From an uncultured Planctomycetales bacterium (GTDB lineage Bacteria; Omnitrophota; Gorgyraeia; Zapsychrales; JBDRMG01): a DNA stretch of 64,000 nucleotides. Position numbers and translations under genes: made by a program. This document shows positions 8,796 to 31,451 of the stretch, piece after piece (the first letter of the stretch is position 1; each line of letters begins with the position of its first letter). The notes below the pieces were generated by a model, which saw only the letters and a program-made list of their open reading frames with translations, searched no databases and had not been told where the DNA came from. The DNA is taken from the NCBI GenBank assembly GCA_964478715.1, contig CAYZIY010000001.1, positions 149,196-213,195 on the forward strand, written 5' to 3'.

Positions 8796-8833
8796 AAACA
8801 TGAAAGCTCTAAATCCTAAGTTCTAAGGAAAAG

Positions 8834-10048: not shown

Positions 10049-10066
10049 AGAAATCGGTTTTTGTGT

Positions 10067-10095: not shown

Positions 10096-10135
10096 GAAAA
10101 GTAGTTCAACAAACAATATAAGGAGGAGGGACGGT

Positions 10136-10558: not shown

Positions 10559-10580
10559 AATGATCGATGAGGGTTGCTAG

Positions 10581-10618
10581 CCCCCCCCGCACCAATTCAT
10601 TGGTGCGGGGGTTTTTTT
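10581..10618 (+). terminator. Rho-independent terminator after the pilin gene
   Basis: GC-rich stem cccccgcacca / tggtgcggggg with a 6-nt loop, followed by ttttttt. Confidence 0.75.
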
Positions 10619-10664
10619 GATCTTAATATTGTGAAAGATTGATTTTCTTATTAGAATAGAGACA

Positions 10665-15535: not shown

Positions 15536-16384
15536 ATGAACAATGCATATATAGAGAAGAGACCCGTCAGTATTGCCATCGTCAACCAAAAGGGAGGATG
15601 CGGCAAGACAACGACTGCTATCAACCTGGCTTCCTGTCTGGCGCTTTCGGGCTATCAGACGCTTTTAATCGATACGGATCCGCAGGCCCAGGCCACGTTA
15701 GGCTTAGGGGTTGAGCTTCATGAGGAGTGTCTCACCCTTTATGATGCGCTCACCAAAGGCGTTCCCTTAGAAAAGATTGTGCGCTTAAGCTCTGTTATGC
15801 GCCTGGATTTGATCGGTGCCAATTCTCTTTTAGCCGGGGCGCAATTGGATATTGCCTCGAGCTTAGGGAGGGAAGCGATTCTTAGAAGCGCGTTTGACAA
15901 ACTGGCTCTTTGCGGAAAGTATGATTACGTGATTATGGACTGCCCGCCGACACTGAATCTTGTTACCGTCAATGTGTTGGCGGCTTCACAGTATGTCTTG
16001 ATTCCTTTTCAAACGCATTATTTTGCCCTGCAGGGTATCAAGGAATTGTTTCACACCATTGATACCGTCAGGGAGAGGCTCAATCCTCAGCTGGATATTT
16101 TGGGAATTCTGGTGACCCTTTTTGATCAGCGCAATAAAGTGAATCACGAGATTCTTCGGCAAATGAACGAGTATTTTAAGGAAAAGATGTTCCGGGCTAA
16201 AATCCGCAACAATGTCAAACTCTGCGAGGCTCCGATGCACCAAAAGCCGATTCATCTTTATGCGGCGCAGTCGAAAGGCGCTGCCGATTATTGGGAATTG
16301 ACCCGGGAAGTGATCGAGCGGACACAAAGACGAAAAGATCATCATGTCATCGAGCCAGTGGTGCATTATGGTTCCAGCGAATAA
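15536..16384 (+). CDS. ParA/MinD-family P-loop ATPase (CpaE/TadZ-like pilus localisation factor candidate)
   Basis: Deviant Walker A KGGCGKTTTAINLA, Walker A' and B (IDTDPQ, VIMDCPP). Confidence 0.85.
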   Translation: MNNAYIEKRPVSIAIVNQKGGCGKTTTAINLASCLALSGYQTLLIDTDPQAQATLGLGVELHEECLTLYDALTKGVPLEKIVRLSSVMRLDLIGANSLLAGAQLDIASSLGREAILRSAFDKLALCGKYDYVIMDCPPTLNLVTVNVLAASQYVLIPFQTHYFALQGIKELFHTIDTVRERLNPQLDILGILVTLFDQRNKVNHEILRQMNEYFKEKMFRAKIRNNVKLCEAPMHQKPIHLYAAQSKGAADYWELTREVIERTQRRKDHHVIEPVVHYGSSE

Positions 16385-17657
16385 AAATTCTGATTCCCAT
16401 CAGCCGGACGTTGAAAAACTTGACACCAATGTCGTTCAGTCTATTTTTGGGAAAAAGGAGAAACGCAAAAAGACATCCAGCCTTTTCGGCAGTACGTCTC
16501 AAGCACCCCAGACTGAATCTCAGAAAGATGTTGTCAAAAACACGAGAAAGATCCGATCTGCTGGTCAAGGTTTTCTTCCGGTGGGGGTGGATGTCGGCTC
16601 CAGCAGCATTAAAATCGCCCAGCTGGAAAACAAGGGCAGGCATCTGGCTATTTCCAAGCTGATTGTGGAAGAGCTGCCTCTGGAATTGGTGGAAAACCCG
16701 GCGCAAAGAGACAAGCAGTTACCCGGGATTCTTAAAAATCTCTGCAATACCTATCAGCTCCAGGGAAACGCCTATGCGGCGCTCTCAACAGAATCGGTGA
16801 TGATGAAAAATATCGCCTTGCCGCAGATGCCGCCGGCCGAATTGGAGGAGGCCCTGCGCTGGGAAGTCCGTCAAATGGCGAAGGACGATTTGGACAATAT
16901 CAGTTATGATTTTGTTGTATTAAACGAAGAACGCTCCTTTAGAGAAGAGAAAATACAGATCCTTCTGATTGCGATTCAGCATGAGGATATTTGGAAATAT
17001 ATGGACATGATGGAATTCGCAGGATTAAAACCTCTGGCGATTGAAACCGAGAGTTTTTCATTGGCCGCCGGTTTGTATTTCAATCAGATCGCCAGAAAAG
17101 GAGAGGTTGTTATCGCTTTAGATTTGGGCGCCGGAGCGGTCAAGCTCAATATCTTAAAAGACGGTAATCTTCAGTACACGCGGGTGTTGAATATTTCTGG
17201 CAATTCCCTGACGCAGACGATAAGGGACTATTGCCATGTCTCATTTACAGAAGCTGAGCGTCTCAAAAGAAAATACGGTTTCTCCAGTTTAACGCAATGC
17301 GATCAAGAGGATCAGAAGCATTATCCGCGGGATATTCCGCTTCAGGTGCGCAATGCGATCACGCTTCCCTTTGAGAAACTGGTGTCCGATATTGAGCATA
17401 CGTTTAAATATTATTCGTATCAATTGACCAAATCCCGGATCACAAACTATGACAAAATAATTTTAAGCGGCGGATCGGCCGGGTTCCCGTCGCTGGTTCC
17501 CATGATTTACGAACGGCTGCATGTGCCGGTGGAAACCGACAATCCTCTGGTGAAATTTCAGATCGCCAAAGAGGCTCTGATTGATCAGGAGAATCTGGAG
17601 AGGTCTTTTCCGCGCTTTGGGGTTGTGCTGGGATTGGCTCTGCGGGGAGCACAGTGA
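16344..17657 (+). CDS. pilM: Type IV pilus assembly protein PilM (actin-like ATPase fold) with N-terminal extension
   Basis: VGVDVGSSSIKIAQL start of the PilM domain; ALPQMPPAELEEALRWEVRQ signature; C-terminal LSGGSAGFPSL. Confidence 0.85.
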   Translation: MSSSQWCIMVPANKNSDSHQPDVEKLDTNVVQSIFGKKEKRKKTSSLFGSTSQAPQTESQKDVVKNTRKIRSAGQGFLPVGVDVGSSSIKIAQLENKGRHLAISKLIVEELPLELVENPAQRDKQLPGILKNLCNTYQLQGNAYAALSTESVMMKNIALPQMPPAELEEALRWEVRQMAKDDLDNISYDFVVLNEERSFREEKIQILLIAIQHEDIWKYMDMMEFAGLKPLAIETESFSLAAGLYFNQIARKGEVVIALDLGAGAVKLNILKDGNLQYTRVLNISGNSLTQTIRDYCHVSFTEAERLKRKYGFSSLTQCDQEDQKHYPRDIPLQVRNAITLPFEKLVSDIEHTFKYYSYQLTKSRITNYDKIILSGGSAGFPSLVPMIYERLHVPVETDNPLVKFQIAKEALIDQENLERSFPRFGVVLGLALRGAQ

Positions 17658-17666
17658 AAGGCAAGA

Positions 17667-18251
17667 ATGAAACGGATTGATTTGATTCCTAAGAAAAACA
17701 GGATAAAAAAAACAACTGCGAGCAGATCAAGCCGAGTAATCATTTTTTTGATATTGGCGATTATTGTTTCTTTTATCTGGCAGAAAACGGCGATCATACG
17801 TTATCAATACAGTATCGATAAGGCCAAGCAGGAAATCCAGACACTAAAAAAGATGCAGCGGGATAATGAAAAACTCTTTTCCTTGCTTTCGCAGCAAAGA
17901 GAGAATGTCAATCAAGAGCGGGCGCAGATCGCCCAGCGGCTGGATATTCTCCAGCAGTCGCGCAGAAAAGGTATCGCCTGGTCGAAGGTCTTGGTTGAGA
18001 TCAGTGCTATTGTGTCGAAGCGGGTTCAGCTGAAGGAACTTCAGCTTTCGGAAGAGGAAATACTTCTTAAAGGGATGGCGCAAGATCAGGAAGATGTCAG
18101 CACGCTGATGCTTTTATTGGATCAATCGGACATTTTTGCGGAAACCGGATTTCGTTTCATGCAGTCTGTCAAAAAAGAAGAAAATAAAATGCCCCAGACG
18201 GAATTTGAAGTGACGACTCAAGTTAGCCGAAGAGCATGGCAAGAAAAATAG
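17667..18251 (+). CDS. pilN: PilN-like fimbrial assembly protein
   Basis: IDLIPKK N-terminus, single TM, coiled-coil and periplasmic domain; follows pilM. Confidence 0.75.
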   Translation: MKRIDLIPKKNRIKKTTASRSSRVIIFLILAIIVSFIWQKTAIIRYQYSIDKAKQEIQTLKKMQRDNEKLFSLLSQQRENVNQERAQIAQRLDILQQSRRKGIAWSKVLVEISAIVSKRVQLKELQLSEEEILLKGMAQDQEDVSTLMLLLDQSDIFAETGFRFMQSVKKEENKMPQTEFEVTTQVSRRAWQEK

Positions 18252-18263
18252 GACATTAATCAC

Positions 18264-19172
18264 ATGGAATTTTTGGCGGGATCTCAGAAAAAATTCAATT
18301 CCTATCGCAAGGTTTATGACCGGCAGCCGGCCAGAACAAAGATCCTGATCGGTCTGCTTTTTCTGGCTTTTTGTTTCAGCCTTTTGATAAATTTTGTTTA
18401 CCGGCCCCAGCAAAGGCTTCTTGCCGATTACAGGCAGGAGATAGTCTCTTTGAAAAACAGGCAGTTGGATCTCAAGGCGAGAATACCCGATGTGGAATCG
18501 CAGAGGAAACTTTTGGAAAGAGAGCGTAATGCTTTGAATGTTTTGACCGATGAACTTAAAAATTTGGAGGCGGAACTGCCGCAGCAGGACAGCCTGCCTA
18601 CGCTTTTAGGCGAATTGATCAGGCAGACCAGGGGGGATCTGGTGGAATTTCGCTCGATCAAGCCGATGGAAGTCGGGGAAAAAGAAGCTTATGACCGCAT
18701 GAATATCGAGATGCAATTGACAGCGGATTTTTCAGGCCTGCTGAATTATTCCCGGCGGCTGGAAACAATATTTCCGTTTATGACCATCAATGAAGTAGCC
18801 ATGCAAGAAAGCAGCCAGGAGCGTTTTTCCCGTTTGGATATCAAGCTGGTGGTCTCAACTCTCTTGAATGACAAGACAACCGGCGGAGGAATCAGGGAAT
18901 TGAAAAAAGATCTCGCCTTTGAGGCTGTGATTTTTGAGAATAATCCGTTTGTCTCAAGTGTTTTTCAAAAGACCTCATTAGCCGAGGATCAAGATTATCA
19001 GATCAGCGGCATTATTTATCAAGGGCAGACCCCGACTGTTATTATCAATGACGAAGTCTTCACTGTCGGGGATTATCTCGACGGATATCAGGTGGAGAAG
19101 ATCATGAGAAATTCTGTTATCTTAAGCGATGGGTTCAGTGCCTTTGAACTCAAAATGGAAGAAAATCCGTAA
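18264..19172 (+). CDS. PilO-like protein fused to a C-terminal PilP-like domain
   Basis: TM plus coiled coil (PilO-like) followed by C-terminal YQISGIIYQGQTPTVIINDEVFTVGDYLDGYQVEKI, paralogous to the PilP-like domain at 14.9 kb. Confidence 0.65.
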   Translation: MEFLAGSQKKFNSYRKVYDRQPARTKILIGLLFLAFCFSLLINFVYRPQQRLLADYRQEIVSLKNRQLDLKARIPDVESQRKLLERERNALNVLTDELKNLEAELPQQDSLPTLLGELIRQTRGDLVEFRSIKPMEVGEKEAYDRMNIEMQLTADFSGLLNYSRRLETIFPFMTINEVAMQESSQERFSRLDIKLVVSTLLNDKTTGGGIRELKKDLAFEAVIFENNPFVSSVFQKTSLAEDQDYQISGIIYQGQTPTVIINDEVFTVGDYLDGYQVEKIMRNSVILSDGFSAFELKMEENP

Positions 19173-19206
19173 ATCATTTTAGTCAGTTGCCAAAAAGGAG
19201 TAGATC

Positions 19207-20601
19207 ATGAGAATCATTAAGAATGTTATGTATCTTGCGGCGGCGGTTTTGATCTTGATTGTTGCCCCGATCGCTCTTTGCGCGGATGATCAACAACTGG
19301 TGAGTCTGGATTACAAGGAAGCCAATCTTTCCAGCGTTCTGCGCGCTTTATCTTATTCCTATGATTTGAATCTGGTGGCCACCAGAGATGTGACCGGAAC
19401 GGTGACGGTGAATCTGCGCGATGTGACGGTGGATGAAGCGCTTCAAGCGATTTTAAGTGTTAACGGTTATGCTTTTACCCGCAAGGGGAATCTTATTTAT
19501 ATCACGCCGGGGCCGGGGACGGAAGGGATCGATTTGGCGACCGAATCGATCCGTCTGAGCTATTTGACCGCGGCCGAGGCCCAGCGTCTCTTGGGGCGGG
19601 TGATTTCCGGCAAAGGCGATATCCAGATCAATGAGGCGACCAATAGTTTAGTGATCACGGACTTTCCGGCCAGTATTCAAAAGGTGAAAGAGGTTCTTGT
19701 CTCCATTGATGTGGCGCCGGCGCAGGTTTTGATCGAATCTAAGATCGTCGATATACAGGATAAGGCCTATGAAAACTTCGGGACGACCTACACATTAACC
19801 TATGATCCCAAGGGATCGACGCCGGGTTTGTTTGACCGGGTCACCAGTTATGATGAATCAATGAGTTCAACAACGACCCTGGCCGGACCGTCTTCGGCAT
19901 TATCCGGCGGGCAGTTTACCTTAACCACCACCATGAAAGATTTCGAGGCAACCGCTACGCTTGATGCGCTGATTCAGGCTAATCAGGCGCGCCTCTTGGC
20001 CTCACCTTCTATTGCGACTCTAAACGGCAAAGAGGCGCGCATTATTATCGGTGAGAAATTTCCCTATAAAGAAAAAACGCAAACCACAACCGGCACCACC
20101 GAAACCACGCGTTTTATCGATGTGGGGACAACTTTAAAAGTTACACCGATGGTTTCACCCGACGGTTGGATCACGATGAATGTGCACCCGGAGGTGTCTT
20201 CGGTGTCGGCCGCGCTTGATGCCGGGCCGCGGATCACCACCCGCGAGGCCGATGCGACCGTGCGGGTAGCCAACGGGCAGACGATTATCATCGGCGGTTT
20301 GATTAATCGCAAAGACGATAAAATCAAAGGCGGGATTCCGTTTCTGCGGGCGATTCCCGTGATCGGGTTTCTGTTTTCCAAACGCAGCAGTGATTTCGAG
20401 GAGACCGAGCTGACGGTTTTTATCACACCCTATATTATCAAGAATCCCCGGCAGATTGCTCAAAAAGATCAGATTTCTTCTCAGGAGGTCTTTTTTGATG
20501 TGAGTCGGGCCGATTATTTACAGAAGGATGCGTATCTGAATCTTCGGGTGATGGAGAAAAAAGAAAAGAATCTGGAAATCGAGACGCAGAGAGCGCAATA
20601 A
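19207..20601 (+). CDS. Secretin (PilQ/GspD family) outer-membrane channel
   Basis: Signal peptide, N-domains, conserved secretin core LLASPSIATLNGKEARIIIGEKFPY ... GGLINRKDDKIKGGIPFLRAIPVIGFLF. Confidence 0.9.
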   Translation: MRIIKNVMYLAAAVLILIVAPIALCADDQQLVSLDYKEANLSSVLRALSYSYDLNLVATRDVTGTVTVNLRDVTVDEALQAILSVNGYAFTRKGNLIYITPGPGTEGIDLATESIRLSYLTAAEAQRLLGRVISGKGDIQINEATNSLVITDFPASIQKVKEVLVSIDVAPAQVLIESKIVDIQDKAYENFGTTYTLTYDPKGSTPGLFDRVTSYDESMSSTTTLAGPSSALSGGQFTLTTTMKDFEATATLDALIQANQARLLASPSIATLNGKEARIIIGEKFPYKEKTQTTTGTTETTRFIDVGTTLKVTPMVSPDGWITMNVHPEVSSVSAALDAGPRITTREADATVRVANGQTIIIGGLINRKDDKIKGGIPFLRAIPVIGFLFSKRSSDFEETELTVFITPYIIKNPRQIAQKDQISSQEVFFDVSRADYLQKDAYLNLRVMEKKEKNLEIETQRAQ

Positions 20602-20603
20602 CG

Positions 20604-21827
20604 ATGCCGCAATACGTTTATAAGGCCAGAGATAATGAAGGGTTGCCGATCCGCGGGGCGGTGGATGCGGTCAGTGAGCTGGCGGTGGTGACTAATCTCA
20701 GGAGTTTGGGCTATCGGGTCGTCTATATCGAGGAACAAAGCGAGGCGAAACGTCTTTGGCAGGACTTGCTTAAAAGGATGAGCCGCATCACCCAGGCTGA
20801 AGTCATCCTTTTTACCCGTCAGCTTTCATCTATGCTTAAAAGCGGTCTGCCGATTACAGACGCTTTGACCAGTTTGATTCAGCAAAGCAAGAATGAAACT
20901 TTTGTTCGCGTGCTTCAAAACGTGCTTAAAGATATAGAGAAAGGCGAGAGTTTTTCCCAGGCTTTGAGCCATCATCCGCGGGTTTTTAACACGCTGTATG
21001 TCAATATGGTTAAAGCCGGAGAGACAGCGGGCGTGCTGCATGAAGTCTTGGATCGACTGGTTGTTTTAAAGACTCAGGAGATGGATGCCCTGATGCGGGT
21101 TCGCTCGGCCATGGTTTATCCGGTGATTCTGGTAACGGCGGCTATTTTTATCGTCGGTTTTCTGATGGCTGTGATTATCCCCAAGTTCGTGGTGATTTTT
21201 GAAACCTATGAAGCCAAGCTTCCTCTGGCCACCCGGGTGTTGATGGGCTTGAGTTTCGCGTTAAAAGATTTCTGGTTTGTTTTTTTGCTGGTTATGGCTT
21301 TGGGCGTTTTCTGGTTTAAGAGATATACGCAGGATGAAGAGGGGCGCTACCAGTTTCATCATTTATTGATCAAGCTTCCGGTCTTTGGAGATTTTTATGT
21401 CAAGATGATCGTCGCCCGCTTTACCCGGATTTTGGGCGTGCTGGTGCGCAGCGGCGTTACGATTTTGGAGGCTCTGGCCGTGACGGAAAAAACGATCAAC
21501 AATGTGGTGATCTCCCGTGTGATCGAAAAGATTCATGTCGCGGTCAGCGAAGGGCAGTCTTTGAGCGAACCGTTTCAGGCCAGCGGGATTTTTCCTCCGA
21601 TGGTGATTCAGATGATCACCGTCGGGGAAAAAAGCGGACGCATGGATCAAATGCTCGCGGAAATTTCCGCCTATTACGATCAGGAGACTGAATATATCAT
21701 CAAGAATGTGACAACCATTTTAGAGCCGGTGTTATTGCTGACGATGGGGGGATTAGTGGCCTTTATCGCGCTGGCGGTTTTGTTGCCGATTTTTAACCTG
21801 ATAAAAGTTTTTCGCGGAGGGATTTAA
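20604..21827 (+). CDS. PilC/GspF-family inner-membrane platform protein (copy 2)
   Basis: Paralog of 8834-10048 with the same two-repeat architecture. Confidence 0.88.
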   Translation: MPQYVYKARDNEGLPIRGAVDAVSELAVVTNLRSLGYRVVYIEEQSEAKRLWQDLLKRMSRITQAEVILFTRQLSSMLKSGLPITDALTSLIQQSKNETFVRVLQNVLKDIEKGESFSQALSHHPRVFNTLYVNMVKAGETAGVLHEVLDRLVVLKTQEMDALMRVRSAMVYPVILVTAAIFIVGFLMAVIIPKFVVIFETYEAKLPLATRVLMGLSFALKDFWFVFLLVMALGVFWFKRYTQDEEGRYQFHHLLIKLPVFGDFYVKMIVARFTRILGVLVRSGVTILEALAVTEKTINNVVISRVIEKIHVAVSEGQSLSEPFQASGIFPPMVIQMITVGEKSGRMDQMLAEISAYYDQETEYIIKNVTTILEPVLLLTMGGLVAFIALAVLLPIFNLIKVFRGGI

Positions 21828-21840
21828 AGGAAGCCCGGAT

Positions 21841-22446
21841 TTGCAAGACGAAGTGAACGCAAGCCTGTCGGCTGACTTGATTCCGTTTCTTACGGCGGGC
21901 GGGATAAGAGGAGAAAGGAAATTCAAGAATATGAATAATTCAAGAAATAGAAAAGCGGGTTTGGCGGGTCAATGTTTCTCGTGTAGTCCCCAAAACGCGG
22001 GCCGGATGCAGGGGTTTACCCTCATCGAAATTCTCATAGTGATCAGCATCATTGCCATTTTGGCTTCAACGATTATTCCCAATTTTGTCGGCTTTGATGC
22101 TGAAGCCCGTGTTTCGGCCACCCGGACCAATCTGGAGTCGATCCGCACCCGGATTAATTTATTCAGGGCCAAGGAAGGACGCTACCCTGATTCGCTGGGA
22201 GAGTTGACGACTACAACCTACAATGACGTGGGTGTAAAGAAGGCCTACCTGAGGAAGATCCCGTCCGAGACGATCAGTAGTTCACGGGGCAATAATGATT
22301 ATGCGGATCAAACGCAAGAAGAGACTTTAGGCGGGACCGGCGGATGGATTTATTTCACCGATACCGCCGAGGTGAAGGTCAATGTAGCCAAAGAGCTGGG
22401 GCGGCGGTGGGGAGATTATGCTGATGAAATTCCTTCAGAATGGTAA
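21841..22446 (+). CDS. GspG-like pseudopilin / pilin with prepilin-type N-terminus
   Basis: MQG/FTLIEILIVISIIAILASTIIPNF with E+5, GspG-like following region. Annotated start gives a long leader; the true start may be an internal Met such as 21931. Confidence 0.8.
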   Translation: MQDEVNASLSADLIPFLTAGGIRGERKFKNMNNSRNRKAGLAGQCFSCSPQNAGRMQGFTLIEILIVISIIAILASTIIPNFVGFDAEARVSATRTNLESIRTRINLFRAKEGRYPDSLGELTTTTYNDVGVKKAYLRKIPSETISSSRGNNDYADQTQEETLGGTGGWIYFTDTAEVKVNVAKELGRRWGDYADEIPSEW

Positions 22447-22819
22447 AAGCAAAAAGGAAAACAGCAAATTGAATGAGGAGAATGGCACCATTCTTTTGAC
22501 GACCCTTATTGTATTGATTTTTGCAACGGTCTTAGGGATGAGCCTGATGGTTTTTCTGATGTCGCGAACGAGAGCCGGCACGCTGGAGCTGGCCCGTCTT
22601 GAGGCTCTGTATCTGGCAGAAGCGGGTATCGCCGCTTCTATTTTTGAATTGAGAAATGATATCGATCCCGACGGAAACGGCGTAGGAAATATCAGGGCTC
22701 GTTCATTGGGTGAGGGGACCTGTTGGGCTGTTCATGATTTTGCGACTTCCACCATTGTGGGCACAGGCGAGATGAATCAGGTTCAGCGTTTTATCCAGAT
22801 CAAATACAGCGCGCTTTAG
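22418..22819 (+). CDS. PilX-N-domain-like small pilus-associated protein
   Basis: TM segment ILLTTLIVLIFATVLGMSLMVFL followed by EALYLAEAGIA (PilX_N-like). Confidence 0.5.
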   Translation: MLMKFLQNGKSKKENSKLNEENGTILLTTLIVLIFATVLGMSLMVFLMSRTRAGTLELARLEALYLAEAGIAASIFELRNDIDPDGNGVGNIRARSLGEGTCWAVHDFATSTIVGTGEMNQVQRFIQIKYSAL

Positions 22820-22832
22820 GTAAGGATGACTC

Positions 22833-24641
22833 ATGGTTGAAAAAAGACGATTGCTGGGAGAATATTTAATCGAGCAGGGGATTATCAGTCCCGACCAGCT
22901 CAAGACGGCGATCGAGGAGGGCAAGCGCTCGAATCGCAAGATCGGGGACGTGCTGATCAAGCTGGGTTACGCCAAGGAAGACGATATTGTAAAGGCCTTA
23001 AGCGAGCAGTTGGGGATTCCCTTTATCGATGTCGACACCTACCAGTTTGATCCTGCAAGCGTGGCTTTGATTCCTTTTGATGCGGCTTTTAAGTTGCGCG
23101 TGATCGGGGTTTACCAAATCGCGAATTCTCTGACCGTGGCCATGACCGACCCGCTCAATGTCACGGTGATCGACGAGCTCGAGAAGCTGACGGGGCTGAC
23201 GATCAACCCTGTTTTTGCCACCCCGACGGGAATCAAAAAAGCGATTCAGAAATATTACTCTCGCGCGGGGTCCTCTGCGACCGGTTTGGGTGTGTCGGGG
23301 GGCTCGGGTACTGCGGCCACTTCGGACTCTGCGGAAACGCTGGACATTTCGGGTGCTTCAGGTACTTCGGGTGTTTCAGGAGTAGCAGACGCGACTGGCG
23401 AGGCTGGCGCGGCTAAAACGGGCGGAATCTCCGCCGGCCGAAGCGACGACTTACCGAAACTAAGAGAACAGGCCGCCCAGGCGCCTGTGATCAAGCTGGT
23501 CAATAAAATCATCGAAGACGCCGTAACGCTTAAGGCCAGCGACGCGCACTTAGAGCCGCAGGACAAGCGATTTCTCTGCCGCTACCGGGTCGACGGAATT
23601 TTGCAGGATTTTATTGAACTGAAAAAAGACCTGGAGCTGGCCACGATCTCACGAATCAAAATCATGGCCAACATCAACATTGCCGAAAAGCGCCTGCCTC
23701 AGGACGGCCGGATTCAAACTCAGGTGAAAGGCAAAGAGATCGATTTGAGAGTGGCCACCTTTCCTACTATTCACGGAGAGCACGTGGCGATTCGCGTTTT
23801 AGATAAATCGACCGGGATACTCAGTTTAGACGAACTGGGTCTGAAAGGGGATCTCTTGAGACAATTTCAGTCTTTGATCACCAAACCGCACGGGCTGTTT
23901 CTGGTGACCGGTCCCACCGGAAGCGGAAAATCCACGACCTTGTATTCGGTTTTGAACACCGTCAATGACAAAAAGAAAAATATTATCACGCTCGAAGATC
24001 CGGTGGAGTACACGATTGAGTATATTCATCAGTCGCAGGTCAATGTAAAAGCCGGTTTGACTTTTGCCGTGGGTTTGCGCTCGATTGTCCGCCTGGATCC
24101 CGACATTATTATGATCGGAGAAATCCGGGACCGGGAGACGGCCGAAATCGCCATTCACGCGGCTTTAACCGGGCACCTGGTTTTCTCGACGCTTCACACA
24201 AATGACGCGCCCAGCGCCTGCGCCCGTCTGATCAATATCGGCTTGGAGTCTTATCTGTTGGCCAGTTCCCTGACCGGCGTGGTGGCCCAGCGGCTGGTCA
24301 GAAAATTGTGCGATCAATGCAAAAAACCTCACAAGCCTGAGCCCCGGGAAATTGAAAGTCTCGGGATGAATCCGTCCGATTTTCAAAACGCACAGATCTT
24401 CCGGGAAAACGGTTGCAAGGCCTGCCGGCAGACCGGCTACAGCGGACGGATCGGTATCTTTGAGATTCTTGTTCCCAATGAAAAAATACGCACACTGATT
24501 ACCCAAAAGGCCTCTTCCAAAGACCTGATGAAAGAAGCCAGGACCTTAAATATGACAACCCTGCTGGAAGACGGTATAGAAAAAATCCGCCTAGGAATCA
24601 CATCGATTTCGGAAATTTTAAGGATTACCGAAGAATCATAA
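22833..24641 (+). CDS. GspE/PilB-family secretion ATPase (copy 2) with MshEN-like N-terminal tandem motifs and a G/S/A/T-rich linker
   Basis: Walker A GPTGSGKSTT, tetracysteine CDQC...CKAC; N-terminal tandem RLLGEYLIEQGII...Q and RKIGDVLIKLGYA...Q motifs; low-complexity insert about 23265-23450. Confidence 0.9.
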   Translation: MVEKRRLLGEYLIEQGIISPDQLKTAIEEGKRSNRKIGDVLIKLGYAKEDDIVKALSEQLGIPFIDVDTYQFDPASVALIPFDAAFKLRVIGVYQIANSLTVAMTDPLNVTVIDELEKLTGLTINPVFATPTGIKKAIQKYYSRAGSSATGLGVSGGSGTAATSDSAETLDISGASGTSGVSGVADATGEAGAAKTGGISAGRSDDLPKLREQAAQAPVIKLVNKIIEDAVTLKASDAHLEPQDKRFLCRYRVDGILQDFIELKKDLELATISRIKIMANINIAEKRLPQDGRIQTQVKGKEIDLRVATFPTIHGEHVAIRVLDKSTGILSLDELGLKGDLLRQFQSLITKPHGLFLVTGPTGSGKSTTLYSVLNTVNDKKKNIITLEDPVEYTIEYIHQSQVNVKAGLTFAVGLRSIVRLDPDIIMIGEIRDRETAEIAIHAALTGHLVFSTLHTNDAPSACARLINIGLESYLLASSLTGVVAQRLVRKLCDQCKKPHKPEPREIESLGMNPSDFQNAQIFRENGCKACRQTGYSGRIGIFEILVPNEKIRTLITQKASSKDLMKEARTLNMTTLLEDGIEKIRLGITSISEILRITEES

Positions 24642-24655
24642 GACCACAGGAATGC

Positions 24656-27600
24656 ATGAAGATCAACAACTGCCGCTTAATGTATTGCTTGCTCAGCCGA
24701 CCCTGCGGTTGCAGAAATGCTTTTTGTCGGCTTTGGCCCCGATTATTTATGGCAGGGGCTGTCTTGCTTTTGATCTCTTTGTGCCTGCCTGAAAATCTTT
24801 ACGCTTACTTGACCGGTGACGCGTGGGATTACGAGCAACAGATCACGGTCACCAATCCCAATGCCGCGTCGCTCAGCAATTACCAGATTCTTGTCGCATT
24901 CGACAGCGCATCCTTGATTACGGCCGGACAGATGGCCGCAGACGGCCGGGATCTGCGATTTACCTCAGCGCAGAATGACGACGCGACCCTGTTGGATTAC
25001 TGGATCGAATCCGGCACGATCAATACGGATGCCACCTATGTTTGGGTTAAGGTGCCTTCACTGGCGGCCTCATCATCCGCGAACATTTACATGTATTACG
25101 GCAACGGAGCCGCACCCGCAGTCAGTTCGCTTGTCTCAACTTTCCGTTCCAGCGATCTCTTTTTATTGACAACCCGTGCCACCGACCAGACCCTGGCCGG
25201 CTACACGGATAATCACGATGAATTTGACGAAATTATTACGCGCATCGGGACGCCCGATTTCGCCGTAGACGGTTCCGGCTATGTGAATGCGGTCAATCAC
25301 AATGCGAATCCCTACGGCAGTTCGGAATACTATTTTTCCCGGTACCGTTTCTTATTTGTCCCTTCTTTAACAGGCACATATTATTTTGGGACCAATTCTG
25401 ACGATGCTTCCGAAATCCTGATCAACAGCGCCGATCAGGACTTAACGCATAATGTGATCGCTTCCTGGTACGGCGGGCATGGAATATCCGGCAGTTTTAA
25501 TCACAACAGTCCGGTTTCTTTAAACGCCGGCTACGGCTATTGGATCGAATACCGGATGACCGAATGGCGCGGCGGGCAGCTCAGCCGGATGGGCATTTTG
25601 CCGCCGGCCGGTTCGTGGCAGATCGTTAACAGCACCAATTTTAGCGGACAGCTGTTCGCCCGAGAGTATGCCGACCAAGAACCGACGGTCAGTTTTCCGC
25701 CTTCCAAACTGGTCTTTACAACCAGCGAGCAAACTATTAATACAGACGGCGTTTCGGGTGTGATCACCATTGAGACTCAGGATCAATTCAGCCATGTGGC
25801 GGTCGCTTCAGCTGATACCGCCATCACGCTAAGCTCGAACTCTTCAACAGGCCAATTTAGCTTAACGGCGGATCCGTTTACGCCTGTCAGTTCCGCGATC
25901 ATTTCTTCCGGTGAAAGTTCTGTCAATCTTTATTATCGCGACAGTTCTTCGGGAACTTTTACCATTTCCGTTTCATCAGCCGGCTTGACCCCGGCGAGTC
26001 AGACAATGAATGTGCAGAATCTAAGCGCGCAGTGGGACCATCGGATTCCCGTTATTATCAATAATGCGGATTGCACTGACGCGCTTAACGATTATCAGGT
26101 TTTAGTGACATTAAACACAGCCGCGATTATCGCCCAGGGAAACATGCAGGCCGACGGAGCGGATATCCGTTTTACGGATTCCGATGACGCGACCTATTTA
26201 TCCTACTGGATCGAATCCGATACCATCAATTCGTCTGATACCTATATTTGGGTAAAAGTTCCCTCCGTCCCGGCTTCGGCGAGCAAGACGATTTATTTAT
26301 ACTACGGAAATGCTTCCGCTACTGAGGTTAGCTCCATTTCTCAGACTTTTAGCGCGGATCAGATCTATTTGTTAACCACGCGCGCTACGGACAGCGGTCT
26401 GGTTGGCTATAGCGACGATCACTCGGAATTTGACCAGATTGTCGACAGGATCGGGCAAGCTGGCTTCACTATTGACGGTACAGGGTATGTCGAGCGCATC
26501 GATCATAATGCCAATCCGTTTGGAAGCGATGAATATTATTTTTCCCGCTACCGTTTTCTCTTTACGCCTGCGGTAACCGGCGAATACTATTTCGGCACCG
26601 ACAGCGACGACGCTTCCGAGATTTTGGTTAACCGCGCGGACGAAGACCAGGCGCACAATGTGATCGCTTCCTGGTACGGCGGGCACGGCACGGCCGGTAA
26701 TTTCAACCATAATGGGGCTGTGAATCTGGAGGCGGACAAAGGCTATTGGGTCGAATACCGCATGACCGAATGGCGCGGCGGGCAGCTCAGCCGGATGGGT
26801 GTTTTGGAACCGGGTTCCTCCTTTAAAACACTGACCGCGGATAATTTTCCGGGGCAAATCTTCACGCGGAAATACTCAACCTGTCTGCCGAGCTCAACCG
26901 AGCAATTTCCGATCACCCGGATTGCCTTTATATCTCCATCGCAATCCATCTATGAAGATCGGGTTTCAAATCAGATAACGATCGAGACGCAGGATGTAAA
27001 CGGGGATCCGGTCGCGGTCACAGAAGACACAACGATCAATCTGCAAACGACATCTTCGAAAGGAGAATTCAGTCTTAATGAGTCACCGTTTCTTGCCGTT
27101 CATTCCGTTACGATCAGCGCCGATTCAAGCAGCGCGAGTTTTTATTACCGGGACCGTGAAGCAGGCTCCTATACCTTAAGCGCATTGGAGTCTCCCGGTC
27201 GCGGCTGGGACGACGGCCAGCAGACTATTGAAGTTCTTGTTTTTGATTATATCGGAAGCTACCAATATCCCGTGACGATCACCAATCCCAACGCTGAGGA
27301 TCTATCCGATTGCCAGGTGAAAGTGACCGTGGACACGGCAAGCTTGATTGCAGAAGGGAAAATGCTGGCCGATGGCTCGGATATCCGCTTTACCGACGAG
27401 GACGATGCGACGCTGTTGTCTTATTGGATCGAATCCGATACAATGAACACCGCGCAAACTTATCTGTGGGTCAGAGTTCCGTTTCTTGCGTCTTTATCCA
27501 ATAAAACCATCTATATGTATTACGGTAATCCAGGGGCAGCCGCGGTCAGTTCGATAGCTTCGACATTTCAAGAGGACCAGATTTATCTGACGACCACCCG

Positions 27601-29800
27601 CGCTACCAATGCCGCTTTGGCCGGCTACACCGATAACCATAATGAATTTGATCAGATCATCGCGGGGATCGGAGCGGCCGGTTTTGAAATTGACGGATCC
27701 GGTCTGGTGGATGCCCTGGACCACAATGCCAATCCGTTTGGAAGCGATGAATATTATTTTTCCCGCTACCGTTTTCTCTTTACGCCTGCGGTAACCGGCG
27801 AATACTATTTCGGCACCGACAGCGACGACGCTTCCGAGATTTTGGTTAACCGCGCGGACGAAGACCAGGCGCACAATGTGATCGCTTCCTGGTACGGCGG
27901 GCACGGCACGGCCGGTAATTTCAACCATAATGGGGCTGTGAATCTGGAGGCGGACAAAGGCTATTGGGTCGAATACCGCATGACCGAATGGCGCGGCGGG
28001 CAGCTCAGCCGGATGGGTGTTTTGCCGCCGGCCGGTTCGTGGCAGACGCTAAACAGCAGTCATTTCGCAGGCGAATTTTATTGCCGCAACTGCACCGACA
28101 GCAATCTCACCGTGACCGAAGGCGAGGAGATCGGGAATATTGCCAAGCTGGAATTCACCACTTTGCCGCAAACCGTTGTTCAGGGTTTTTCCACGGAATT
28201 GATGTCCGTTCAGACACAGGATGCATCCAGCGTGGCCAGGCCCGTTACTGCCGATACACAAATATTTCTCGAATCCTCGTCTTTGCTCGGGCAGTTCGCG
28301 CCGGAAGACGATCCGGCTAACTGGAGCGCCGATAATACCTTAACGGTTACGATTCCCTCCGGTCAAGATACGGCACGCTTTTACTACAGGGATTTTGAAG
28401 TTGGTCTTCCGACGATCTCCGCGTCCGAATTTCCAACTCAGGGATGGCAGGAGGCCACCCAGCAGCAGACCATTAACAGCGCGGTCAATACATTTCAGGT
28501 GACAGCCGGTGCGGCTCAGGTGACAGGGGAAGCGTTTGCGCTTTCGATCACCGCCATTGACCAAAACGGTAACGTGGCCGTTGATTACAATGATCCGGTT
28601 GATCTTTCCGTGAATTATGTGAGTCCGTTAACAGGCACGGGAGCGCTTTCCGTTGCCGGCGCTACGGCCTTTGTCAACGGGATCGCGGTTTTGAATAATG
28701 TTACTTATTCGAACTGCGGGGTCATCACCATGACGGTAACCAAAAGCGATGATCCGGCTAAAACCGGTTCATCTAGCAATATTTCTTTTGCGCCGGATTC
28801 GTTTTCTTTAGAGTTGTCCGGCCTGGATTTCCTAGCGGCCCACACGGTCAATAAATCCTTCACGCTGAGCGCTACCGCCTTGGATGCGGCGGGAGCTGTT
28901 TGCACAGGCTATCAAGGCCCGGCCTCGCTTTCGGTCAATACTATTGATCCGCCGGCTGATCAGGGGGCCAGCCTTTCGCCCGAGCAATTGGGGAACACGC
29001 TTTGGAATGAAGGAACAGCCGAGATCGCGGAGGCCACTTTCGATCGCTACGGCGAGGTTTCTTTGGTCATCAGCGATGACAATTTATCAACACAACAGGG
29101 GACATCGCAGGAGATTGTTTTTCTTCCCAAAGATTTCCTGGTCAACCTTTCGGATCCTCTGCCGGATAGAGATTTTTATTATACCCATGAACCCATTGAT
29201 ATTTCTGTTGGAGCCCGGGATGAAAACAATGAGCCCGTAGTTAATTATCAGGGGACCGTGGGCTTTGAGGGAACCAGTCTCAGTCTTCCCGAGACTTATA
29301 CATTCATCGATGACGAAGACGGCCGTCATGAGTTTTTGGATATCAGCAGTTCGTTGAGCTTTGAGGAAAAAACTTTAAATGTTTTTGATACGCAGTTTTC
29401 TTTTGTGCAAGGTGAGAGCGAGCCGATCACCGTCAAAGAGGCCCGGATTCAAGTTCTTCCTAACCGGGGTCCGGTGGGGAATCTGCCTTTGACTATTCAG
29501 ATTATTGACGAGGATGATCAGGTGATTGTTGAAGATAACAGCACCTTCTTTACCGTTGATCTTGAGGAATTCATTGATGACGGTTCGGCCACCTCTCATG
29601 CGCTCGGCAATCCCGTTGTGGTCACCGAAGGGACGGCCATGATTATTCTTAATGATGACCAGGCCGAGCAGGTGACGGTCACGCCTGATTCCACGCCCGG
29701 TCTTAAGCCCGTTGCCGGCATCGCCACTTTCGGAACGGTTTCAGGAACAGGGCTGGGTATCCAAATTTATCGAGAGCTAAAAGATGAGGTTGAACAATAA
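24656..29800 (+). CDS. Giant secreted protein (1714 aa): three tandem modules of DUF2341-like domain + PA14 domain, then bacterial Ig-like domains
   Basis: Three repeats each with ..DG.DIRFTD.DDAT.L.YWIES...Y.WVKVP..........IY.YYGN followed by a PA14-like core YYFSRYRF.F.P..TG.YYFGT.SDDASEIL.N; hydrophobic N-terminal region. Start codon uncertain (an internal Met at 24749 begins a signal-peptide-like segment). Confidence 0.8.
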   Translation: MKINNCRLMYCLLSRPCGCRNAFCRLWPRLFMAGAVLLLISLCLPENLYAYLTGDAWDYEQQITVTNPNAASLSNYQILVAFDSASLITAGQMAADGRDLRFTSAQNDDATLLDYWIESGTINTDATYVWVKVPSLAASSSANIYMYYGNGAAPAVSSLVSTFRSSDLFLLTTRATDQTLAGYTDNHDEFDEIITRIGTPDFAVDGSGYVNAVNHNANPYGSSEYYFSRYRFLFVPSLTGTYYFGTNSDDASEILINSADQDLTHNVIASWYGGHGISGSFNHNSPVSLNAGYGYWIEYRMTEWRGGQLSRMGILPPAGSWQIVNSTNFSGQLFAREYADQEPTVSFPPSKLVFTTSEQTINTDGVSGVITIETQDQFSHVAVASADTAITLSSNSSTGQFSLTADPFTPVSSAIISSGESSVNLYYRDSSSGTFTISVSSAGLTPASQTMNVQNLSAQWDHRIPVIINNADCTDALNDYQVLVTLNTAAIIAQGNMQADGADIRFTDSDDATYLSYWIESDTINSSDTYIWVKVPSVPASASKTIYLYYGNASATEVSSISQTFSADQIYLLTTRATDSGLVGYSDDHSEFDQIVDRIGQAGFTIDGTGYVERIDHNANPFGSDEYYFSRYRFLFTPAVTGEYYFGTDSDDASEILVNRADEDQAHNVIASWYGGHGTAGNFNHNGAVNLEADKGYWVEYRMTEWRGGQLSRMGVLEPGSSFKTLTADNFPGQIFTRKYSTCLPSSTEQFPITRIAFISPSQSIYEDRVSNQITIETQDVNGDPVAVTEDTTINLQTTSSKGEFSLNESPFLAVHSVTISADSSSASFYYRDREAGSYTLSALESPGRGWDDGQQTIEVLVFDYIGSYQYPVTITNPNAEDLSDCQVKVTVDTASLIAEGKMLADGSDIRFTDEDDATLLSYWIESDTMNTAQTYLWVRVPFLASLSNKTIYMYYGNPGAAAVSSIASTFQEDQIYLTTTRATNAALAGYTDNHNEFDQIIAGIGAAGFEIDGSGLVDALDHNANPFGSDEYYFSRYRFLFTPAVTGEYYFGTDSDDASEILVNRADEDQAHNVIASWYGGHGTAGNFNHNGAVNLEADKGYWVEYRMTEWRGGQLSRMGVLPPAGSWQTLNSSHFAGEFYCRNCTDSNLTVTEGEEIGNIAKLEFTTLPQTVVQGFSTELMSVQTQDASSVARPVTADTQIFLESSSLLGQFAPEDDPANWSADNTLTVTIPSGQDTARFYYRDFEVGLPTISASEFPTQGWQEATQQQTINSAVNTFQVTAGAAQVTGEAFALSITAIDQNGNVAVDYNDPVDLSVNYVSPLTGTGALSVAGATAFVNGIAVLNNVTYSNCGVITMTVTKSDDPAKTGSSSNISFAPDSFSLELSGLDFLAAHTVNKSFTLSATALDAAGAVCTGYQGPASLSVNTIDPPADQGASLSPEQLGNTLWNEGTAEIAEATFDRYGEVSLVISDDNLSTQQGTSQEIVFLPKDFLVNLSDPLPDRDFYYTHEPIDISVGARDENNEPVVNYQGTVGFEGTSLSLPETYTFIDDEDGRHEFLDISSSLSFEEKTLNVFDTQFSFVQGESEPITVKEARIQVLPNRGPVGNLPLTIQIIDEDDQVIVEDNSTFFTVDLEEFIDDGSATSHALGNPVVVTEGTAMIILNDDQAEQVTVTPDSTPGLKPVAGIATFGTVSGTGLGIQIYRELKDEVEQ
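26507..26806 (+). repeat. 300-bp direct repeat copy A inside the giant gene (PA14 core of module 2)
   Basis: Identical base-for-base to 27725-28024 by direct comparison. Confidence 0.9.
27725..28024 (+). repeat. 300-bp direct repeat copy B inside the giant gene (PA14 core of module 3)
   Basis: Identical to 26507-26806; offset 1218 bp. Confidence 0.9.
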
Positions 29801-30212
29801 GAACCGGGGTTTTACCTTTATCGAGCTGTTGATCACTCTTACGGTTTTAGCGATTTCTTTTCTGCCTTTGATGAATATGTATACCGTGATGATTGACCAA
29901 TCGGTATTTACCAGTGATCTGACATCAGCCCGCTATCTCGCTCAGGAGGAAATGGAGAAAATCAAGAATCGCAATCTCACGGTTCAACAGCTTAAAGAAA
30001 TGGGCGACCGCTGGCATCCGCCGCTTAATGAAAAAGCGCTCGTGTTAAACAAAGAACGCTGGAGGGTTTTAAGGACCATTGAGCCCACAGAACCCTTAAC
30101 GGTTAAAGTTCAGGTCTTCAAAGAAGCCGAACGGATTTCCCGAAAGGAACCCAAGCCGGTTGCCAGTCTTATCACCCTGATCGAAGATTTCCACTGGGCC
30201 ATTACCGATTAA
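29784..30212 (+). CDS. Minor pseudopilin with prepilin-type N-terminus
   Basis: NRG/FTFIELLITLTVLAISFLPL with E+5. Confidence 0.75.
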   Translation: MRLNNKNRGFTFIELLITLTVLAISFLPLMNMYTVMIDQSVFTSDLTSARYLAQEEMEKIKNRNLTVQQLKEMGDRWHPPLNEKALVLNKERWRVLRTIEPTEPLTVKVQVFKEAERISRKEPKPVASLITLIEDFHWAITD

Positions 30213-30218
30213 ACCAGA

Positions 30219-31451
30219 ATGCGAAAGACAAACAAAAACATTAACGGCGGTTTGATTTTAATAGAACTATTGATCGCTATTTCTATTGCGGCGGTTTTAA
30301 TCGGGGTCGTGGCCCTCACCATGAAAACAGTTTTTGATATCTATCATTTCGTGCAAAACGAAATGATACTACAGAAAGCCCTCGATGATTCATTGAAGAC
30401 GCTTTCCGACGGAGATTTCCGCAACTATGGGATCAAAGATTCCCTGGAAATCATTAAAGCCGGCCAAACATATCTTTCATTTGTCCCTCCCTGGGTCGAT
30501 GACAGCCACCGGGTTGACAATATGGCCGATCAGAGATTTAGACTCTCTGCTCCCTTTAAGGCCGGTTCCGGACTTCCTCTGGCCGAGGCCAGACCGTATG
30601 GCAAACAGCCCTGGCAGGTTGTGCCGCTTATTTTCTTTTTAAGAGAAACATCCAACGGGGCAATGGAAAAAGACCAGGCGATTATTGCCGCCGAACTCCC
30701 CCCGGGTACTCCGGTGCGCTTTATCTATCATCCCGACACCCGTACTATTCCTGATGCGAGAATGACTCTCCGCTTTTCCCCAGAGACCATCGCGCGCACC
30801 TACAGACAAAAAAAAGAGGTTTTCCCCAAAAGTGATTTCGGCCCTGTGGCCTTCAGAGATGTTTCATTGAAATATTTTGACAATGCCAACAACAGAATGG
30901 AAGCCGGCGCTTCAGGGGAAATCCCTGCGGCCGACATCCCTAAAATCACAGCTGTCAAGTTGAGTATCACGGCTCAGGCGGGGGGCAAGTCAAAGACGGG
31001 TCATGTTTTTATCAATTTGCGCAATACCCGTTCGGTGGGTTCCGGCTTGATTATCCGAAAGGGCGCCACGCTGCCTCTTCCGAATTCCCGCGATATCCGC
31101 GCTTTTAGTCTGCACAACATTATTGGCGTAAAGCCCGGCGGCCTTATCTCTTTATTGGCTCAGTCTGATGAAGGCAACAGCTGGAAAATCAATATCGAGC
31201 TGGATAGTGAGGGTAACAGGGAGCTGATCAAAGGTTATGGGGTGGAATATCCGGCCGGTTCCAATGTTTCGAGCCAGACACTTAATTTAAACACGGATCT
31301 TCCAATCAACTTCCTGAGCCTGGGAGGAAACGGCCGTTATGATTATGACCTTGACGATAATGTGGAAGATGTCGTAAACTTAAAAGGAAAGGTCAAGTTG
31401 ACGGTTTTGGAGATGGACGCCCAAGGGGCCGCGCTTTTCATCCGGCCGTGA
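30219..31451 (+). CDS. Large (410 aa) pseudopilin-like protein (GspK/PilY-like candidate)
   Basis: Prepilin-like N-terminus NGG/LILIELLIAISIAAVLIGVVAL with E+5; large periplasmic domain. Confidence 0.6.
   Translation: MRKTNKNINGGLILIELLIAISIAAVLIGVVALTMKTVFDIYHFVQNEMILQKALDDSLKTLSDGDFRNYGIKDSLEIIKAGQTYLSFVPPWVDDSHRVDNMADQRFRLSAPFKAGSGLPLAEARPYGKQPWQVVPLIFFLRETSNGAMEKDQAIIAAELPPGTPVRFIYHPDTRTIPDARMTLRFSPETIARTYRQKKEVFPKSDFGPVAFRDVSLKYFDNANNRMEAGASGEIPAADIPKITAVKLSITAQAGGKSKTGHVFINLRNTRSVGSGLIIRKGATLPLPNSRDIRAFSLHNIIGVKPGGLISLLAQSDEGNSWKINIELDSEGNRELIKGYGVEYPAGSNVSSQTLNLNTDLPINFLSLGGNGRYDYDLDDNVEDVVNLKGKVKLTVLEMDAQGAALFIRP

Follow-up and report, generated by a model that had tools for sequence, protein, structure and literature searches.

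A probable pilus-tip adhesin with DUF2341-PA14 heads, encoded among the minor pilins of a type IVa/MSHA-like operon in Omnitrophota

The stretch of DNA analyzed here (64,000 nt, positions 149,196 to 213,195 of contig CAYZIY010000001.1 in assembly GCA_964478715.1, from an uncultured bacterium placed in the Omnitrophota; hereafter the window) carries a pilus operon at 15536-31451 that includes a gene for a modular, 1714-residue protein. We propose that this protein is probably the tip adhesin of the type IVa/MSHA-like (mannose-sensitive haemagglutinin-like) pilus encoded by the same genes, and that it is docked onto the filament by its C-terminal tail. The proposal draws on the position of the gene beside the same ATPase and minor pilins in most relatives while the flanking genes differ, on an anchor of stalk and tail that is conserved beneath variable heads, and on the tail itself, which is conserved, disordered when modelled alone, C-terminal in the retrieved members and retained in a distant giant protein. 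It draws further on a complete set of candidates for a tip complex, including a pilin-like protein without the conserved glutamate at position 5 (Glu5), on heads with adhesin-type PA14 lectin folds and a stalk resembling invasin and FdeC, and on the precedents of PilC/PilY1, MshQ and archaeal DUF2341 proteins from pilus loci. An initial annotation of the same DNA had left the choice between a pilus-presented adhesin and a dedicated secretion substrate; the evidence below supports the former, and we weigh the latter as a rival.

The open reading frame (ORF) runs as first annotated, and its product divides as follows (aa, residues of the protein):

24656-29800, + strand: gene, with its stop codon, of the modular 1714-aa protein, the candidate adhesin (ORF list, translation)
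24656-24808, + strand: predicted signal peptide region, aa 1-51 (sequence and orthologue signals)
24809-26029, + strand: module 1, aa 52-458, with DUF2341, PA14 and immunoglobulin (Ig)-like domains (Pfam, module comparison)
26030-27253, + strand: module 2, aa 459-866, with DUF2341 (module residues ~1-105), PA14 (~110-292) and Ig-like (~304-385) domains
26501-26806, + strand: PA14 core of module 2, a tract near-identical to the module 3 core at 27719-28024 (DNA comparison)
27254-28495, + strand: module 3, aa 867-1280, with DUF2341, PA14 and Ig-like domains (Pfam, module comparison)
28496-29731, + strand: conserved stalk, aa 1281-1692, made of four beta-sandwich (Ig-like) domains in a row (AlphaFold2, Foldseek, orthologues)
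29732-29797, + strand: C-terminal tail, aa 1693-1714, GTVSGTGLGIQIYRELKDEVEQ, proposed docking element (conservation, model)

The tight same-strand arrangement first described, with an ATPase gene ahead and two minor pilin genes behind, is likewise found. The ORF starts 14 nt after the stop of the ATPase gene (22833-24641), with AGGA 5-6 nt upstream of its first ATG, and overlaps the 142-aa prepilin gene (29784-30212) by 17 nt; a 6-nt gap then separates the latter from the 410-aa prepilin gene (30219-31451), and all four genes are on the + strand. The N-terminal region is hydrophobic, as had been noticed: a long basic n-region leads into the h-region AGAVLLLISLCL, and the sequence reads ..RLWPRLFMAGAVLLLISLCLPENLYA/YLTGD, where the slash marks the likely cleavage site after LYA (..LYA/YLTGD). 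The true start could be M1, M9 or M32. In the orthologues the DUF2341 domain starts with the same W.Y, and a classical Sec signal peptide ends just ahead of it; from these signals and the N-terminus of the window protein we infer export by Sec. Two other identities were considered and rejected, that of a lipoprotein, as Leu precedes the Cys and there is no lipobox, and that of a protein with a pilin-like N-terminus, as the G/F...E motif is missing.

The surrounding operon reads in the direction of the adhesin gene and comprises, beside that gene:

15536-16384, + strand: ParA/MinD-like ATPase, which opens the conserved operon (AAA_31, E 2e-53)
16344-17657, + strand: PilM (domain scan; passes the TIGR01175 cutoff)
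17667-18251, + strand: PilN (domain scan)
18264-19172, + strand: PilO (domain scan)
19207-20601, + strand: secretin, with PilQ as best-matching model (domain scan, NCBIfam)
20604-21827, + strand: platform protein, PilC/GspF (T2SSF, E 1e-58)
21841-22446, + strand: major (pseudo)pilin, probable start 22006 (MQG/FTLIE) (N_methyl and weak T2SSG; partial GspG and PilA matches)
22418-22819, + strand: 133-aa pilin-like ORF without Glu5 (ENG/TILLTTLIV), a PilX/PilK/GspK-like candidate
22833-24641, + strand: extension ATPase with an MshE-related N-terminal motif for binding cyclic di-GMP (c-di-GMP) (T2SSE, E 4e-137; MshEN)
29784-30212, + strand: 142-aa minor pilin (G/FTFIE, Glu5 present) (N_methyl, E 3e-7)
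30219-31451, + strand: 410-aa minor pilin (GG/LILIE, Glu5 present), specific to this operon type

By NCBIfam models the machinery falls between the type II secretion system (T2SS) and the type IVa pilus. For the ATPase, the GspE and PilB equivalog models score equally, both just under their cutoffs, while the c-di-GMP motif model NF053729 reaches 65.2 bits against a cutoff of 38 over residues 8-59. The locus is not a canonical T2SS (Gsp): the GspE, GspF, GspD and GspG models all stay under their cutoffs, PilM, PilN and PilO are found instead, and neither Pfam nor NCBIfam yields a match to GspC or GspL in this machinery, although the PilO-like protein gives weak, below-cutoff matches of T2SS-M type. 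What had been called a T2SS-like half of the locus is therefore better described as type IVa/MSHA-like, with PilMNO, a PilQ-like secretin and an MshE-type ATPase. These same data bear on the possibility that the pilus-like machine works as a T2SS-type piston and that the 1714-aa protein is its dedicated substrate, released to the medium or to the cell surface as a free or surface-bound lectin. Such a role draws some support from the GspE, GspF and GspG models, which score nearly as well as the pilus models, from PilT, which was not found in the window, and from West-Roberts et al., who read as secretion systems those loci that precede giant genes in Omnitrophota. We nevertheless judge it unlikely, given the combination of PilM, PilN and PilO with a PilQ-type secretin where GspC and GspL matches were not found, the overlap of the adhesin gene with a minor pilin gene, and the presence of a small, Glu5-less, K-like pilin which, lacking the large GspK insertion, fits the partner-strand systems (PMC12918778).

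A set of candidate subunits for the tip complex can be named among the pilins. Lack of Glu5 marks the apical PilK/PilX/GspK subunit (Ellison et al., PMC12918778). The 410-aa pilin keeps this residue and is therefore not a PilK/GspK-type subunit, whereas the 133-aa ORF at 22418-22819, a gene that the initial annotation did not mention, lacks it and is therefore a candidate for the K-type (PilK/GspK) role. Its match to PilX_N is weak (E 0.17), as is that of its orthologue in locus L012; it is conserved in all eight loci for which upstream sequence is available, each time with a mature form of exactly 110 aa, Thr or Ser at position +5, and a conserved C-terminus, R..Q[IM][KR]YS. The 142-aa pilin can tentatively be assigned to a GspI/PilV-like position, and pilins of the 410-aa type form 53 clusters of 400-530 aa in a large database, none of them characterized. 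The major pilin is highly conserved across the loci. As in PilC/PilY1 systems, the large gene is thus encoded with minor pilins that include a Glu5-less PilK/PilX-type subunit, in a different gene order.

The proteins closest to the window protein share 41-51% identity with it, consist of several modules, span 1283-2013 aa and bear no annotation beyond "DUF2341 domain-containing"; the named relatives of both the protein and its 410-aa pilin come from Omnitrophota metagenome-assembled genomes (MAGs). We inspected the neighborhoods of nine family members. Placement beside the ATPase and two minor pilins, the constancy of which had been put forward as a check, recurs in eight of the nine, and a tail-bearing giant adjoins the large pilin even in the distant locus L014, discussed below. 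Seven of the nine lie in the same operon with its upstream machinery visible (P0003, P0008, P0011, P0013, P0147, P0293 and P0137), including one in which a 140-aa pilin precedes the large gene (P0013) and one with two extra ORFs in between (P0293); in an eighth, P0004, the same two pilins follow and the contig begins at the large gene. The ParA/MinD-like first gene is shared by loci L002, L006, L010 and L012. As the flanking genes vary among the loci, it is the operon that is conserved and not a larger syntenic block. The large gene overlaps the next pilin gene in six of eight loci, which suggests coupled, low-level expression of the adhesin with the minor pilins.

Several loci have further genes within or around the operon. 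That of L007 is syntenic except that a PrlF-like antitoxin and PIN toxin pair (9255-9921) separates the ATPase gene from the adhesin gene. L011 has 194- and 665-aa ORFs without Pfam matches between the ATPase and the family member (7472-10004), as well as an ORF with a 23S_rRNA_IVP four-helix bundle between the two minor pilins (12827-13186); the same bundle is fused to the large pilin in P0390. In L007, L010, L011, L012 and L014 the operon is flanked by clusters of signalling genes (single-domain response regulators, histidine kinases, GGDEF/HD proteins), and L003 has a PilZ ORF within the operon, an arrangement consistent with control of the pilus by c-di-GMP. Polysaccharide export genes (Bac_transf, Poly_export/SLBB, Wzz, epimerase) lie downstream of the pilins in L002 and L004, nucleotide-sugar genes follow the operon in L012, and a link between the pilus and exopolysaccharide production is possible.

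The proposed heads of the protein correspond to the three ~400-aa repeats of the initial annotation, here delimited at aa 52-458, 459-866 and 867-1280. They are 53-59% identical in pairwise BLASTP comparison (E 1e-156 to 1e-172), and both previously noted motifs recur in each, Y.YYGN at aa 145, 547 and 953 and YYFGT.SDDASEIL at aa 242, 644 and 1050. The domain assignments, named beforehand as a point on which the interpretation could fail, are backed by Pfam: DUF2341 (PF10102) scores 199.5 bits against a cutoff of 23.4 over three stretches, and PA14 (PF07691) 40.4 bits against a cutoff of 24 (E 3e-10) over two stretches, the third PA14-bearing module being 53-59% identical to the two others. 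A profile of the module found no significant match among PDB sequences. The suggested structural check was made on module 2, which was modelled with AlphaFold2 on 15 homologous modules and yields, at a predicted local distance difference test (pLDDT) score of 80, a DUF2341 beta-sandwich, a second domain and a third, Ig-like domain. The fold search identified the second domain as a PA14 beta-barrel and matched it to adhesin-type PA14 lectin folds; sequence identity to PA14 lectins (Flo5, Epa, Cea1, MpIBP and Lap-type RTX adhesins) is 11-16%. All three modules keep the SDD triplet, and across the 15 aligned modules its second Asp hardly varies. The motif G.YYFGT.SDD.SE may lie at the site of the calcium-binding aspartate pair of PA14 lectins.

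DUF2341 and PA14 form a fixed pair of ~290 aa, with DUF2341 always ahead, and the pair recurs in other proteins. Two of these, P0014 and P0018, contain two or three DUF2341-PA14 modules that resemble the ones described here, behind an N-terminal signal peptide of the archaeal, pilin-type class III (..KGQ/TSIE..), so that the same lectin module is there joined directly to a pilin-like N-terminus, an association that also argues for a tip adhesin. Within the window gene, the PA14-core tracts at 26501-26806 and 27719-28024 differ by only 2 mismatches in 306 nt, while their flanks (26130-26530) are 58-73% identical between modules in 100-nt windows, a contrast that indicates recent gene conversion between the PA14 cores of modules 2 and 3. 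This near-identity probably accounts for a break inside the gene in L013, a short-read assembly of the same organism, and for the lack of the full protein in the protein database.

The heads are the exchangeable part of the protein. Across 12 orthologues, identity to the window protein is 46-59% in the DUF2341 block, 43-59% in the Ig-like domain and 41-55% over the full length of the 434-aa C-terminal region, yet the PA14 core has no counterpart in any of these 12 closest orthologues, which have at its position either a jelly roll of the LamG-like type or a different domain of ~330 aa. For the wider family, we searched 1.84 billion representatives exhaustively with a profile of the C-terminal region and examined the top 150 matches. 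The profile also finds many generic Ig-repeat proteins, but ~60 of the 150 matches cover it whole, in one stretch ending at their own C-terminus, in proteins that span ~500 to 2,700 aa. Heads among 47 such wider members include DUF2341 (in six), fn3, Laminin_G_3, PA14, F5/8 type C, GLEYA and beta-propeller repeats. A scan of a genome collection with two narrow C-terminal patterns returned only an Omnitrophota MAG that was already known, and is a weak basis for any claim of rarity. Within the stalk region, 11 of the 47 match Pfam DUF6701 above cutoff, up to E 2e-24, whereas the window protein gives no match to it even at E 10. DUF6701 is probably the MshQ-type family, and through it the window protein is possibly a distant relation of MshQ-type proteins; none of its relatives carries an MshQ label in the named-database profile search, the cluster look-ups, NCBIfam or the DUF6701 literature.

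This variability of the heads also speaks to whether the protein could be an assembly factor only, which would prime or gate pilus assembly in the periplasm or at the secretin while its lectins bind the cell's own envelope glycans. A role of this kind has been suggested before for PilY1, loss of mshQ or PilY1 lowers piliation, and the position inside the assembly operon is conserved. Frequent exchange of heads among close relatives and gene conversion of the PA14 core are, however, typical of outward-facing, ligand-binding parts and not of a conserved component inside a machine, and a long stalk bearing three repeats of a lectin head points to reach and multivalent binding; we therefore hold a purely assembly-related function to be decidedly improbable.

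Below the heads, the C-terminal 434 aa form four successive beta-sandwich domains in an AlphaFold2 model (pLDDT 89.7) which Foldseek matches to tandem Ig arrays such as those of invasin and FdeC, while Pfam finds no match in this region. The Ig-like domains anticipated in the initial annotation are accordingly present twice over, one per module and four in the stalk. The last 22 residues (GTVSGTGLGIQIYRELKDEVEQ) fall below pLDDT 50 when this region is modelled alone, and are among its most conserved: the 20-aa window containing the tail carries 3.35 bits among the orthologues (mean 2.83), second in the C-terminal region to a window with 3.38, and still ranks seventh in the 47-member set, where F, G and [WY]-R-E of the tail are nearly invariant. 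Among the fetched proteins, 59 have a strict form of the tail motif within their last 45 residues, and 30 more, whose full stalk extends to the C-terminus, have looser forms.

The most divergent bearer of the tail is encoded in a 1.5-Mb Omnitrophota genome (CP070797.1, locus L014), next to a distant homologue of the 410-aa pilin (33% identity). There, an ORF open for >3,330 aa ends 8 nt upstream of the pilin gene, and the last 70 residues of its product match profile positions 357-426 (E 1e-17), ending in ..GTVTFGRVAKTGIGTLMWREKRD. The body of this giant shows no match to the stalk, and only the last ~70 residues of the family are kept; tail and large pilin therefore travel together while all else differs. 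In the gene call (L014 1-9993) the giant ORF appears as two genes, of 3,933 and 72 aa, a split that seems to be wrong; its product has faint matches to TPR, Methyltransf_28 and Peptidase_M50, and the locus lacks a 140-aa pilin between the giant ORF and the large pilin. As a tentative extension of the tip-adhesin proposal, with the balance of probability against it, the last ~70 residues, comprising half an Ig domain and the ..FG..G.G[IV]..[WY]RE tail, may act as a portable docking tag by which almost any body could be mounted at the pilus tip through the operon-specific pilin of the 410-aa type; its cargo would then range from 500-aa single lectin heads to giants of several thousand residues with unrelated content.

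The tail also weighs on the choice between attachment and other routes to the surface. A family that is defined by a conserved C-terminal element co-occurring with a specific pilin points to stable attachment and away from release as a secretion substrate; T2SS cargo is not known to have a conserved linear C-terminal signal. The conserved C-terminal element could, on the other hand, be a sorting or secretion signal, in which case the protein would be an independent surface adhesin delivered by a type I secretion system (T1SS) or by sortase-like C-terminal sorting and merely co-regulated with the pilus, and PA14 domains are indeed known in T1SS RTX adhesins (6m8m, 6x95). We give this route very little credence: the window protein has an N-terminal signal of the Sec type and does not qualify as an RTX adhesin with PA14, since RTX repeats or other Pfam matches were not found in it; its tail has no transmembrane segment and no PEP-, GlyGly- or LPXTG-like motif; T1SS and sortase genes were not found in the window; and the tail co-occurs specifically with the 410-aa-type pilin.

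For the pilus-tip adhesin, we envisage the following sequence of events. Sec would take the 1714-aa protein to the periplasm, where the tail, unstructured on its own, and the last stalk domain would bind a minor-pilin initiation complex composed of the Glu5-less, PilX/K-like pilin of 110 aa and the two pilins of 142 and 410 aa. Binding of the tail would probably proceed by beta-strand addition, as proposed for PilC/PilY1 and MshQ; the L014 locus points to the 410-aa type as its recipient, and the precedent of PilC/PilY1 to the K-like pilin. The ATPase, putatively responsive to c-di-GMP, would then polymerize the major pilin beneath the complex and push it out through the secretin, so that at the tip the rigid Ig-like stalk could present three DUF2341-PA14 lectin heads, which would bind glycans multivalently.

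Several points weigh against this proposal. The relative closest by sequence, P0001, has no pilus genes in the 10 kb upstream or the 1.7 kb downstream of it, and such a homologue encoded away from the pilus also fits release as a secretion substrate. Genes for a prepilin peptidase were not found in the window, and neither, as mentioned, was the retraction ATPase PilT. The order of the genes is unlike that of pilVWXY1 or mshDOPQ, with the K-like gene upstream of the ATPase and the adhesin gene before the other two pilins, and the I-like and J-like labels of the latter rest on size and position, as profiles run against solved structures matched only the N-terminal pilin helix. The conserved tail motif is followed by 0-12 variable charged residues and, unlike the docking segment of PilC/PilY1, is not at the extreme C-terminus. 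Finally, the secretin would have to let through a protein of 180 kDa, or relatives of at least 2,700 aa.

The comparison with a very large PilC/PilY1, drawn when the gene was first annotated, holds as analogy and fails as homology. Like the PilC/PilY1 tip adhesins of Neisseria, Pseudomonas, Acinetobacter and Myxococcus, the window protein is large, apparently Sec-exported and encoded with minor pilins, and couples a variable N-terminal binding part to a conserved C-terminal part. In PilC/PilY1, assembly and retention depend on a C-terminal strand that complements PilK, and the same is predicted for MshQ (PMC12918778); the attachment of a short C-terminal segment to a Glu5-less PilK/PilX-type pilin, as proposed there (PMC12918778), would be a further likeness. 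The C-terminal beta-propeller is, however, replaced by four Ig-like sandwiches with no Pfam match, and the protein therefore does not belong to the PilC/PilY1 family, from which it also differs by the variable charged extension past the motif, the gene order and the three DUF2341-PA14 heads. MshQ, a putative MSHA adhesin of ~1200 aa in Vibrio, Shewanella and Aeromonas, varies in length between strains; loss of mshQ lowers surface piliation, complementation of MshP, the homologue of PilK, is predicted for the extreme C-terminus (PMC12918778), and the MSHA ATPase binds c-di-GMP. The window system shares with it a pilus ATPase with the MshE-type c-di-GMP motif, but MshH-, MshK-, MshM- and MshN-like genes were not found in our scans, and whereas mshQ is the last msh gene, after mshD, mshO and mshP, the window gene follows the ATPase and precedes two pilins. 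CpaL/TadG of Tad pili is likewise a large, tip-associated protein whose C-terminal strand stabilizes the tip complex (PMC12918778); CpaL, however, contains a pilin-like domain and complements itself, whereas the window protein has no such domain.

The statement that no pilus-associated DUF2341-PA14 giant had been described proved too strong in view of Makarova et al. 2016 (PMC4858521) and West-Roberts et al. 2023. In archaeal type IV pilus loci, DUF2341 proteins have been proposed as tip adhesins (Makarova et al. 2016, PMC4858521), and a DUF2341 protein was found repeatedly in a transformation screen together with epd pilus genes. These Epd-type proteins (Methanococcus; arCOG03508, MJ1470) resemble the window protein in their size and in their type IV pilus loci; the system described here is bacterial, with a secretin, and the proposed attachment is by a separate C-terminal tail and not by a pilin-like N-terminus, neither stalk nor tail having been reported for the archaeal DUF2341 proteins. 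In Omnitrophota, West-Roberts et al. 2023 found giant genes to be generally preceded by a conserved T2SS-like locus with genes for class III signal peptides, and suggested prey adhesion; a complete-genome preprint of 2026 repeats the T2SS-like locus ahead of the giant genes. Like the window protein, those giants are large, multidomain proteins with attachment and carbohydrate-binding domains, behind gspD/E/F-like genes and with links to c-di-GMP (PilZ). They differ in having genes of at least 25 kb, many transmembrane regions, SecA-like domains and a locus with rcpC and rotamase genes, whereas the family described here spans 500-2,700 aa, is presumably soluble after Sec export and is defined by stalk and tail; a docking mechanism was proposed in neither the 2023 nor the 2026 study.

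Further filament and signalling genes surround the operon. Directly upstream, at 4815-15076, lies a second, incomplete type IV filament gene set. It encodes a PAS histidine kinase that ends in a PilZ domain, together with a response regulator, one more T2SSE ATPase and one more GspF. Pilins lie at 10061, 11479 and 11873, and a 278-aa pilin-like ORF without Glu5 at 10665; a fusion of PilM with PilN (548 aa) and two small ORFs resembling PilO/GspC also belong to the set. A large adhesin gene and a secretin are missing from it, and it may therefore share the secretin of the downstream set. The PilO-like protein of the downstream operon (18264-19172) has an extra C-terminal domain matching CdsD_C and Y4YQ_C, which are associated with type III secretion rings, and a small ORF of the upstream set (14621-15076) has the same Y4YQ_C-like end. 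Downstream of the operon, genes at 48868-56148 specify sensor kinases along with a Cache-PAS-kinase-GGDEF-receiver protein of 1110 aa, again consistent with control of the pilus by c-di-GMP.

A connection between DUF2341 and type IV pili (in archaea, with the same functional guess) and the occurrence of Omnitrophota giant genes beside T2SS-like loci are already published. New are the definition of a family by stalk and tail, its fixed place among the minor pilins of a PilMNO-type operon, the pattern of head exchange, the triple DUF2341-PA14 version and the specific docking hypothesis. Tip adhesins decide what a type IV pilus adheres to, and to our knowledge PilC/PilY1 is the sole family of them that is understood, MshQ having only just been proposed. 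The locus would represent a third solution, structurally unrelated to PilY1, in which an Ig-like stalk and a short tail anchor carry interchangeable lectin heads. Spread across uncultivated bacteria of the Omnitrophota/PVC (Planctomycetes-Verrucomicrobia-Chlamydiae) type, which are presumed to live attached to other cells, the family is a candidate for partner recognition, its tail could serve as a simple sequence tag for spotting pilus-mounted proteins in metagenomes, and it provides a separate case on which to test the recent proposal that pilus assembly is licensed, across type IV filaments, by a strand that a partner protein adds. If the portable tag were true, ultra-small Omnitrophota and PVC bacteria would possess a plug-and-play display for attachment to hosts or prey, and the giant proteins of the Omnitrophota would gain a concrete molecular link to the secretion or pilus loci that adjoin them.

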